DNA of 48,151 nt from a virus (taxonomy: Duplodnaviria; Heunggongvirae; Uroviricota; Caudoviricetes): positions 1 through 48,151 of the IMG/VR virus record IMGVR_UViG_2617270976_000012, one strand, 5' to 3'. The position numbers and the translations under genes were made by a program. Within the stretch, counting starts at the first letter, position 1; each line of letters begins with the position of its first letter. This document shows positions 46,455-48,151 of this stretch, piece after piece. The notes under the pieces were generated by a model. The model was given only the letters and a program-made list of their open reading frames with translations. It ran no database searches and was not told the origin of the DNA.

Positions 46455-47534
46455 GTGAATATGGCAGTAAAGATTTCAGGTGTGCTGAAGGATGGTACAG
46501 GAAAACCGGTACCGGACTGCACCATAGAGCTGAAAGCCACGCGAACGAGTGAGACGGTGATAGTCACCACGGTGGCGCAGGGGCAGCCGGGGGAAACCGG
46601 CAGTTACAGTTTTGATGTGGAGCCGGGGTGGTACCGGGTGACGCTGAACACGGAAGGGTACGCCCCGTCGTATGTGGGTGACATTCTGGTGAAGGCGGAT
46701 TCTGAGCCGGGAACGCTGAATAAATTTCTGATGGAACAGGATGAGGTGCAGTATTACCCGAAAGCGCTTGCAGAGCTGGAAGCGGTGGCAGCGGAAATCC
46801 TGAAGCGTGCTGAAGCGTCGGCGGCGAGTGCAGAGGAAGCGAAGGAACGGGCAGAGAATGCCCGGGGACCGGCGGGCGAGAAGGGGGACACAGGTCCACA
46901 GGGTGCCACAGGGGCACAGGGACCAGCCGGGGCAACGGGGGCGGTCGGACCAAAAGGTGAGCCGGGGCCAAAGGGAGAACGGGGAGAAACAGGTCCACAG
47001 GGACCGAAGGGCGATAAAGGTGACCCGGGCGGACCGCCGGGGCCGAAAGGGGATACGGGAGACACAGGCCCGGCAGGACCACAGGGGCCGAAGGGAGATA
47101 CGGGAGACACAGGCCCGGCAGGCCCAGGGGCCAAAAGGGGATACGGGAGCCAGGCGGCAGGGCCTCAGGGGCCGAAGGGAGATACGGGAGACACAGGCCC
47201 GGCAGGTCCGCAGGGACCGAAGGGAGATACGGGAGACACAGGTCCGGCAGGACCTCAGGGACCGTCAGGAAGTCCTGACAGCGGACTGTTTGGTGTCGGT
47301 TCTTTTGTCCTTGCGGCATATTATGCGACGAGTTATTCGGGGGATATGGCACCGGGCTCAGCCATTGCCGGCTCATCACTGTCTGCATGTTGCCTTTCGA
47401 ATGGTACTCCCCTGGTTGCTTCCGGTAATGTGGGGGAGACCCGTTTACCGGGCACGTGGCGTGCATGTGGTCCGATGCTATGGACATCATCTCCGGGTAT
47501 CAGACAGGCAGGATTATTTCAGCGCATATCATAG
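46455..47534 (+). CDS. Side tail fibre protein (Stf-like N-terminus, collagen-like Gly-X-Y repeats)
   Basis: N-terminus [17 protein letters not shown] matches lambda Stf as recalled; about 45 Gly-X-Y triplets with the [17 protein letters not shown] unit repeated; C-terminal region not recognised. Confidence 0.7.
46880..47270 (+). repeat. Collagen-like coding repeat (GC-rich, periodicity about 51 bp)
   Basis: GGCCCGGCAGGACCACAGGGGCCGAAGGGAGATACGGGAGACACA units repeated; produces long spurious antisense ORFs. Confidence 0.8.
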
Positions 47535-47542
47535 AGGAGGTC

Positions 47543-48151
47543 ATGGTGGATAAGGGAAAAGAGATTCTTGCAGTACGAAATGCAGCCAGCAACGAATATG
47601 GCGGGATAAACTGTGAGGTGCAGTTTGAAGACGCGGTGAATGAAAAAGGGGAACAGGTATGGCTGCCGTATACTGCAACGGAAACGGATAATACAGAACA
47701 CGGAAAAGCATTGTGGTCTGGGCTGACAGCAGGAACGTACGGAAGCGTGAGTGCCTTTGTTGCCACGGAAGCAGTACTGGAAGCGGCAAAGGCGGCGAAA
47801 CGGGAAGAGATTAATATCTGGCGTGATGTGCAGGAGAATATGGAATACGTGATGGAATTCAACGGAAGGAACTGGGATTACGGCAAGAAGACGTTGTCCA
47901 GGATAAGCACGACACGCCTGATGGCAGAGAATAACCGTCTTCCGGAAGGTTTTGCCTGGACCGACGGGGATAATAATGTGGTGCCGGTGACGGCGGCGGA
48001 GATAATTGCGCTGGCAGATGCGACAGAGCAGGCGATGTTTGCGAAGGGAGTGGAGATTAATACACGGCAGTTGCAGATGAAAGCCGAGGTTGAGGCGCTG
48101 ACAGACCTGAAGGCGATCCGCAGTTATGCTGTCGGATGGCCTGCTGGCTGA
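47543..48151 (+). CDS. Tail fibre-associated protein (possible fibre assembly/accessory protein)
   Basis: GGAGG RBS then ATG 47543; 202 aa; position after the fibre gene; stop at window end; family not confidently recognised. Confidence 0.4.
   Translation: MVDKGKEILAVRNAASNEYGGINCEVQFEDAVNEKGEQVWLPYTATETDNTEHGKALWSGLTAGTYGSVSAFVATEAVLEAAKAAKREEINIWRDVQENMEYVMEFNGRNWDYGKKTLSRISTTRLMAENNRLPEGFAWTDGDNNVVPVTAAEIIALADATEQAMFAKGVEINTRQLQMKAEVEALTDLKAIRSYAVGWPAG

Follow-up and report, generated by a model that had tools for sequence, protein, structure and literature searches.

The right-hand end of a 48,151-nucleotide stretch of viral DNA (IMG/VR record IMGVR_UViG_2617270976_000012, Caudoviricetes; the whole stretch is called the window here) very probably encodes the trimeric side tail fibre of a lambdoid prophage, with a collagen stalk, together with an assembly chaperone built of two modules. 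The fibre gene is followed directly by an open reading frame (ORF) for a protein of 202 residues. Both had been pointed out in an earlier account made from the letters of the window alone (the sequence-only reading), as had one irregular repeat unit within the stalk. The window is identical to positions 65-48215 of contig JNQT01000008.1 in the draft E. coli assembly GCA_000704325.1. Domain assignments, homologies, gene order and the co-occurrence of fibre tip and chaperone N-terminal domain (N-domain) across unrelated phages were read directly from the comparisons given below. The coordinates of all features are collected in Table 1.

The fibre was taken to start at the ATG at 46461, which gives the N-terminus MAVKISG... 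found in all homologues, and not at the GTG at 46455. Residues 1-134 scored 144 bits against the Pfam model 'Prophage tail fibre N-terminal' (PF08400; cut-off 26.6), and the lambda-Stf-like N-terminus proposed in the sequence-only reading was thereby confirmed. This anchor includes a short alanine/glutamate-rich helix at about residues 100-134. The Pfam search of the fibre gave no match to Phage_fiber_2 (PF03406) at E<=0.1 and none to PfC (PF06820), and a PfC C-terminus was rejected on the latter result; the NCBIfam search gave sub-threshold collagen-adhesin matches only. Two ORFs lying over the repeats in other frames (46807-47553, plus strand, 248 aa; 46564-47490, minus strand, 308 aa) were discarded as genes and put down to the GC-rich, stop-poor repeat DNA. 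Matches to the N-terminal and collagen parts of the fibre gene were present in 3,143 of 5,426 complete E. coli genomes (58%).

The Gly-X-Y triplets of the stalk fall into runs of 19, 10 and 13 (residues 136-192, 194-223 and 234-272). The sequence-only reading had given about 45 triplets, all from near-identical DNA repeats. The number was close to the 42 counted here, and the repeat origin failed for the first 19 triplets, which are not a tandem DNA repeat; the tandem repeat is confined to the last third of the triplets. The first break in the triplets is GDPGGPPG, a conserved interruption already described for such proteins (PMC3368898). Isolates differ in the length of the 45-nt array. Relatives that share the tip carry 59-64 triplets and nine GP.GPKGD-type units, against 42 and five in the window fibre, and the same query interval covered between 1674 and 1949 nt when compared across 13 complete genomes. 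Invariant repeats, named in the sequence-only reading as the outcome that would count against it, were thus not what was found. Collagen lengths of 27 to 322 residues are on record for this protein group (PMC3368898).

The C-terminus of the fibre had been left unassigned. No Pfam model covers residues 271-357, but homologues share, at their extreme C-terminus, the motif series VG(S/T)(F/Y)...PG...GS.L...C...(L/V)PGTW(R/M).C...GLFQRI. A search of 1.84 billion proteins with a profile of this tip retrieved 712 representative clusters. The tip domain was terminal in nearly all of the 150 matches listed, in proteins of 65-772 aa, and ten long tip-bearing proteins gave no Pfam match over the tip region. 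The tip was modelled by AlphaFold2 (AF2) as all-beta, with a predicted local distance difference test score (pLDDT) of 75. Among PDB sequences, the sole match of the tip profile was to the last 75 residues of gp47, the tail fibre of Pseudomonas phage Pa193 (9b45; E=0.017). The tip of ORF-401 from the E. coli prophage P-EibA is a diverged member (33% identity, ending in ...LFQRI), and the profile also picked up tips of the ORF-401 type (P0135, E about 1e-19 to 1e-22). Kinship with the tip of gp26 from Alteromonas phage V22 was considered and rejected, the two being unrelated. The fibre C-terminus therefore belongs to a widespread tip module, common to P-EibA ORF-401, Pa193 gp47 and others. The tip/chaperone allele of the window itself was present in 56 of the 5,426 complete E. 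coli genomes (~1%).

On these sequence features the fibre is placed in class EPclC (Ghosh et al., 2012; PMC3368898), the type of which is P-EibA ORF-401. It combines PfN, collagen and a non-PfC C-terminus homologous to ORF-401, with a PCoil that is short or absent. It is not an EPclA or EPclB protein because PF06820 was not matched. EPclA and EPclB share with it the architecture of PfN, coil, collagen and C-terminal trimerisation domain, and their collagen parts differ in length by multiples of three residues (PMC3368898); they differ in having a PfC C-terminus and a PCoil of ~116 aa, against ~35 aa in the window fibre. In P-EibA (E. coli ECOR-9; AF151091), ORF-401 and ORF-191A likewise sit after J and lom. 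The PfN N-terminus and first collagen block of ORF-401 are 83% identical to the window fibre over residues 1-259 and contain the same GDPGGPPG, its tip is homologous and non-PfC, and a DUF4376 protein (45% identity) is encoded directly downstream. P-EibA differs from the window in its two collagen blocks, its other tip subtype and its diverged chaperone N-domain, and in the cargo gene eibA that follows, where the window prophage has only a ykgJ-like gene. With lambda Stf (orf-401/orf-314) and Tfa the window shares the J-lom-stf-tfa locus, PF08400 and the succession of a fibre gene and an assembly gene. Unlike in lambda Stf, a collagen stalk replaces the Phage_fiber_2 repeats and the lambda-type C-terminal region, and unlike lambda Tfa, the downstream protein lacks PF02413.

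That 202-aa protein is assigned, from its sequence, to a known kind, the tail-fibre assembly chaperones of the DUF4376 class. Residues 81-188 scored 62.7 bits against PF14301 (cut-off 25). No match to PF02413 (Caudo_TAP / lambda Tfa) was obtained at E<=0.1, and membership of the lambda Tfa family was rejected on that basis, in agreement with the sequence-only reading; NCBIfam gave no match, and nothing relevant was found among PDB sequences with the DUF4376 profile. The ATG lies 9 nt past the fibre stop codon, and the Shine-Dalgarno sequence, GAGGAGG at 47534-47540, overlaps that stop. A chaperone gene directly downstream of the fibre gene was also present in seven other phages. Homologues occur in prophages of E. 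coli, Salmonella, Citrobacter, Cronobacter and Hafnia, and a close one is already named 'phage tail fiber assembly protein' in one source. The sequence-only reading had left the ORF unassigned and had allowed that its identification as a standard tail fibre assembly protein would overturn this; that is largely what was found.

The AF2 model of the 202-aa protein (pLDDT 92.9) begins with three beta-strands and a helix (residues 8-63), followed by long antiparallel helices with beta-hairpins (76-185), a layout that agrees with the description of the V22 and A5 chaperones (PMC10579305). For DUF4376 chaperones a fold resembling intramolecular chaperones, such as those of T5 pb1 and K1F endosialidase, has been claimed. 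The C-terminal two-thirds aligned with V22 gp27 (hhalign probability 89.6%, E=1.9e-6, 125 columns). V22 gp27 was required, in experiments, for a functional V22 fibre and was absent from the final complex (PMC7289586), and the Campylobacter H-fibre likewise needs its downstream DUF4376 gene (PMC7882524). As in the window, the fibre gene is followed at once by a gene for a DUF4376 protein in V22 (gp26/gp27), in A5 (gp8/gp9) and in Campylobacter CJIE1 (H-fibre); these systems differ from the window in unrelated fibre tips, other hosts and other virion morphologies.

The N-domain of the chaperone was found to accompany the tip. In the Pbunavirus Pa193, the last ~75 residues of gp47 carry VGSY...GTWR...LFQRV, and the ORF directly after gp47 aligned with chaperone residues 7-78 (hhalign probability 96.1%, E=3.4e-9). 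Pa193 is otherwise unlike the window: the phage is a myovirus, its fibre is a 962-aa protein without collagen, and its 142-aa downstream protein has no DUF4376. The gp47 tip lies outside the electron cryo-microscopy model, which covers residues 1-340 only. The 142-aa ORF (L008 2733-3161; NC_050148.1 42029-42457) carries no annotation in RefSeq; it probably encodes the fibre chaperone of Pbunavirus. The same tip motifs and the same chaperone N-domain were found in phiP27, Rac-SA53 and PhiR5_1, and more weakly in Klebsiella phage Mexia, where the chaperone gave an hhalign probability of 15% against the N-domain and the shared motifs were seen by eye; the Mexia pairing is suggestive only.

A natural swap was seen between P-EibA and PhiR5_1, in which the DUF4376 parts are 98% identical, against 29% for the N-domains and 25% for the tips. 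E. coli genomes also hold mosaics that share just the 3' part of the chaperone gene. An identity comparison was made over seven phages, and only the P-EibA/PhiR5_1 contrast was used from it; the rank correlation between tip identity and chaperone-domain identity in these seven was uninformative, the sample being small and the Rac-SA53 fibre read out of frame. As judged from these alignments, the chaperone N-domain varies with tip type and the C-terminal domain does not. Modular Tfa-like chaperones such as TfaMu and Pam3 gp25 combine a variable fibre-binding N-domain with a conserved oligomerising C-domain (PMC9608196, PMC7882524), and the 202-aa protein fits this layout, with an N-domain that tracks the tip and a constant C-domain.

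For this E. coli pair, chaperone action is inferred from related systems. The 202-aa protein could instead be a structural tip adhesin, which would stay on the virion and bind the receptor like T2 gp38 or bound TfaMu and would not act transiently. Both PHROGs and GenBank phage records contain homologues labelled 'tail fiber protein' or 'side tail fiber', and Tfa of Mu and of Ur-lambda is reported to be retained in the mature phage (PMC9608196). These labels are untested names, however, and V22 gp27 is missing from the finished fibre (PMC7289586). Variation in the protein is greatest in the part that tracks the fibre tip, and this part adjoins a conserved oligomerisation module, which is the layout of a chaperone. 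The adhesin explanation is considered unlikely.

The stalk contains the one locally degenerate unit that the sequence-only reading had placed near 47115-47165, and it breaks the Gly-X-Y register. The closest relative of the window (L001), likewise integrated at potB, is a prophage of strain S1-CAM-01-A, the genome of which is complete. Identity between the two is 99.5% upstream of the array and 100.0% over 882 nt downstream of it, and L001 has seven 45-nt units, all regular, against four in the window. Relative to unit 2 of L001, the degenerate unit shows five separate deletions of 1-2 nt (A, A, CG, T, A) and zero substitutions. The early deletions shift the frame and the later ones restore it, so that the frame is wrong for ~10 codons. 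Of the 45 columns, 12 vary between units, and each of the six deleted bases can be assigned to one of these, five of them unambiguously (chance ~1e-4). No other indel separates the window from L001 across the ~6-kb alignment. The unit was not found in the 5,426 complete E. coli genomes, where the best match was 92.5%, i.e. with the gaps, nor in exact-pattern scans of IMG/VR, GTDB species representatives and JGI metagenomes. The 357-aa fibre protein is recorded on the source contig alone, the chaperone protein on 53 contigs. The unit looks like an artefact or a private lesion rather than a feature of the family.

With modest confidence, and as judged from the assembled sequence, the degenerate unit is most likely a consensus error made where the draft assembly collapsed the array, because deletions at inter-unit variable columns and three missing units fit a consensus over a collapsed repeat. 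Database proteins with this tip are mostly 'partial', which suggests frequent breaks of draft contigs within or close to these collagen arrays. Two points weigh against an assembly error. Pure de Bruijn short-read assembly should not create micro-deletions, and the overall loss of 6 nt keeps the frame, an outcome that selection acting on a true allele would account for as well. The unit may accordingly be genuine, a private compensated double frameshift with a three-unit contraction, giving a 10-residue non-collagen hinge in a fibre translated to full length; this is regarded as quite possible while falling short of the preferred explanation. The frame is regained after ~10 codons and the fibre ORF is intact to the conserved tip, and the lack of indel errors elsewhere on the contig relative to L001 indicates an otherwise accurate assembly. 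Loss of frame in such arrays is on record in finished genomes (P0136) and in the literature ('defective' EPclA* copies; PMC3368898), and collagen interruptions are tolerated in nature, GDPGGPPG in this family being an example. Mutation, on the other hand, would hardly produce five deletions of 1-2 nt within 39 nt, with no substitutions and all at inter-unit variable columns; the unit was seen nowhere else in the collections searched, and the sequence downstream of the array is 100% identical to that of a relative with a regular array.

Decay of the fibre gene as a pseudogene of a cryptic prophage, with the degenerate unit as its first step, would suit a singleton allele and the fibre genes of some relatives that are flagged incomplete by the Prokaryotic Genome Annotation Pipeline (PGAP). 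It is considered very improbable, since the fibre ORF is full-length, with conserved N- and C-termini that stay in frame, the ORFs for head, tail and lysis functions in the window appear complete, and the flagged fibre gene of O104:H4 shows no stop over the 500 codons examined.

Three side observations concern these arrays. In the degenerate unit, CCAGG (Dcm) motifs (GCCCAGGGG and AGCCAGGCG) arise at both deletion clusters, and the regular units lack them; this may be coincidence, or a possible clue to the source of error if methylation-sensitive long reads were used. The fibre gene of O104:H4 2011C-3493 (L005 3019-4557) is annotated by PGAP as an incomplete pseudogene, yet 3019-4520 is stop-free and the ORF ends with the same tip; the pseudogene call is probably an annotation artefact arising from the collagen repeats. 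P0136, a 177-aa 'putative tail fiber protein from prophage' in a 4.25-Mb E. coli genome, consists of ~90 N-terminal residues of out-of-frame collagen repeats and then a normal tip. Frameshifts or mis-called starts in collagen arrays recur in deposited genomes.

A wider reading of the locus has two parts. The 87-residue tip and the ~75-residue N-domain would form a co-transferred receptor-binding cassette without a curated family, the oligomerisation module of the chaperone would be freely exchangeable, and, separately, the degenerate unit would be a real compensated frameshift that makes a hinge. Taken as a whole this is put forward tentatively. The cassette may be common to lambdoid siphophages with collagen or non-collagen stalks, Pbunavirus myophages and T4-like Klebsiella phages, and the exchangeable module may be either DUF4376 or a short Caudo_TAP-like helical domain.

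Table 1. Features of the fibre locus and its surroundings. Positions are those of the window unless marked L003 (window coordinate = L003 + 36460).
Feature	Position	Strand	Basis or remark
J	42256-45729		
lom	45797-46396		PF06316, E=2e-125
Terminator-like hairpin between lom and fibre gene	46423..46444 (L003 9963-9984)	+	Stem AGCCCGCC...GGCGGGCT then TTTTTGT; ~16 nt 5' of fibre start codon
Side tail fibre gene, 357 aa, EPclC-type collagen-like (assigned on sequence)	46461..47534	+	phrog_366 tail fiber, E=1.7e-93
N-terminal anchor, residues 1-134, lambda Stf / PfN type	46461..46862	+	PF08400, E=2.8e-42, full 134-position model
Collagen-like stalk, residues 136-272, 42 Gly-X-Y triplets	46866..47276	+	PF01391, E=1.3e-17; direct count
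45-nt tandem array, 15-aa unit	47024..47264	+	Tandem Repeats Finder: period 45, 5.5 copies, 85% matches, score 328
Degenerate unit, 39 nt instead of 45	47117..47155	+	L001 unit 2 minus 5 micro-deletions (6 nt)
C-terminal tip, residues 271-357 (87 aa), presumed trimerisation and receptor-binding knob	47271..47531	+	Motifs VGSF...PG..AGS.L...C...LPGTWRACG...GLFQRIS
Putative DUF4376-class tail-fibre assembly chaperone gene, 202 aa	47543..48151	+	phrog_1141, E=4.4e-80; PF14301
Chaperone N-terminal domain, residues 1-78, three beta-strands and helix, putative tip-specific module	47543..47776	+	AF2 model; hhalign
DUF4376 domain, residues 81-188, long antiparallel helices with beta-hairpins, presumed oligomerisation/assembly module	47783..48106	+	PF14301, E=5e-17
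Terminator 3' of 202-aa ORF stop	L003 11702-11721	-	
YkgJ-family gene, 109 aa	L003 11834-12163, 143-472 nt past window end	-	Cysteine cluster CxxCxxCC (PF03692)

Fibre gene and 202-aa ORF form the distal end of the late (tail) operon in a lambdoid prophage, which is integrated at the potB/potC junction of a draft E. coli genome. In the last 6 kb of the window J, lom, the hairpin, the fibre gene and the 202-aa ORF follow one another in the lambda J-lom-stf-tfa layout. Late transcription, antiterminated by Q, would be expected from lambda biology to read through the hairpin between lom and the fibre gene. The source contig begins just 64 nt 5' of the window, within the early region of the prophage and beside an exonuclease VIII-like gene (567-3038, minus strand), so the assembly broke inside the prophage. 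The int/xis/attL side is absent from the contig, and the prophage is therefore truncated by a contig break. Between the tail genes M and L lies a 378-aa ORF (38547-39683, plus strand) with no Pfam match on record and an end-to-end match to phrog_410 (unknown function); it looks like a moron inside the tail operon.

The window ends at the stop codon of the 202-aa ORF, as the sequence-only reading had stated, the last base of the TGA being 48151. Further fibre or cargo genes had been thought possible to the right. On the extended contig no additional fibre gene was found between this ORF and the potB junction; the sole gene there is the small, moron-like ykgJ-like gene, which lies between the chaperone gene and attR, is convergent with the tail operon and gave no PHROG match. 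The O104:H4 prophage, at another site (yecD), has sequence in common with the window prophage up to the start of the ykgJ-like gene and carries a frameshifted copy of that gene, which is therefore phage-borne. K-12 homology resumes at L003 12348, in the final codons of potB (junction L003 12334-12348, equivalent to K-12 locus L013 2618-2632). The prophage ends ~650 nt past the window. The junction falls in the last potB codons, where potB overlaps the start of potC; the phage provides a new 3' end for potB, and potC is parted from it by the entire prophage.

A mechanism can be proposed in which docking, receptor binding and chaperone action are modelled on lambda Stf, EPclA, V22 gp26/gp27 and the Campylobacter H-fibre. 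The N-terminal domain would dock the fibre trimer to the tail tip, as in lambda Stf. The short helical segment and the collagen triple helix would form a stalk of ~36 nm (126 residues at ~0.29 nm each), the length of which would be tuned through gain or loss of units. The 87-residue beta-rich tip would nucleate trimerisation and bind the receptor; in EPclA the trimerisation module is the PfC domain, which is unrelated to the window tip. The N-terminal beta domain of the chaperone would recognise and grip this type of tip, and the DUF4376 helices would oligomerise (trimerise) and drive folding of the fibre trimer from its C-terminal end. The chaperone may then remain on the tip as a cap.

The locus is a standard lambdoid host-range module. 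An EPclC fibre with a DUF4376 chaperone is a type already present in the literature and in annotation, and carries little discovery value; the only unusual feature of the locus is the degenerate unit, which is a singleton and probably has no biological origin. Draft assembly is known to go wrong in the collagen arrays of prophage fibres, and odd units in them need a check against reads before they are interpreted. The cassette of tip and chaperone N-domain, for which there is no curated family, is a modest by-product of the analysis. Its pairing across very different phages, without a Pfam model, could help software to predict receptor-binding modules and could guide the construction of chimeric fibres, in which the tip should move together with the matching chaperone N-domain.

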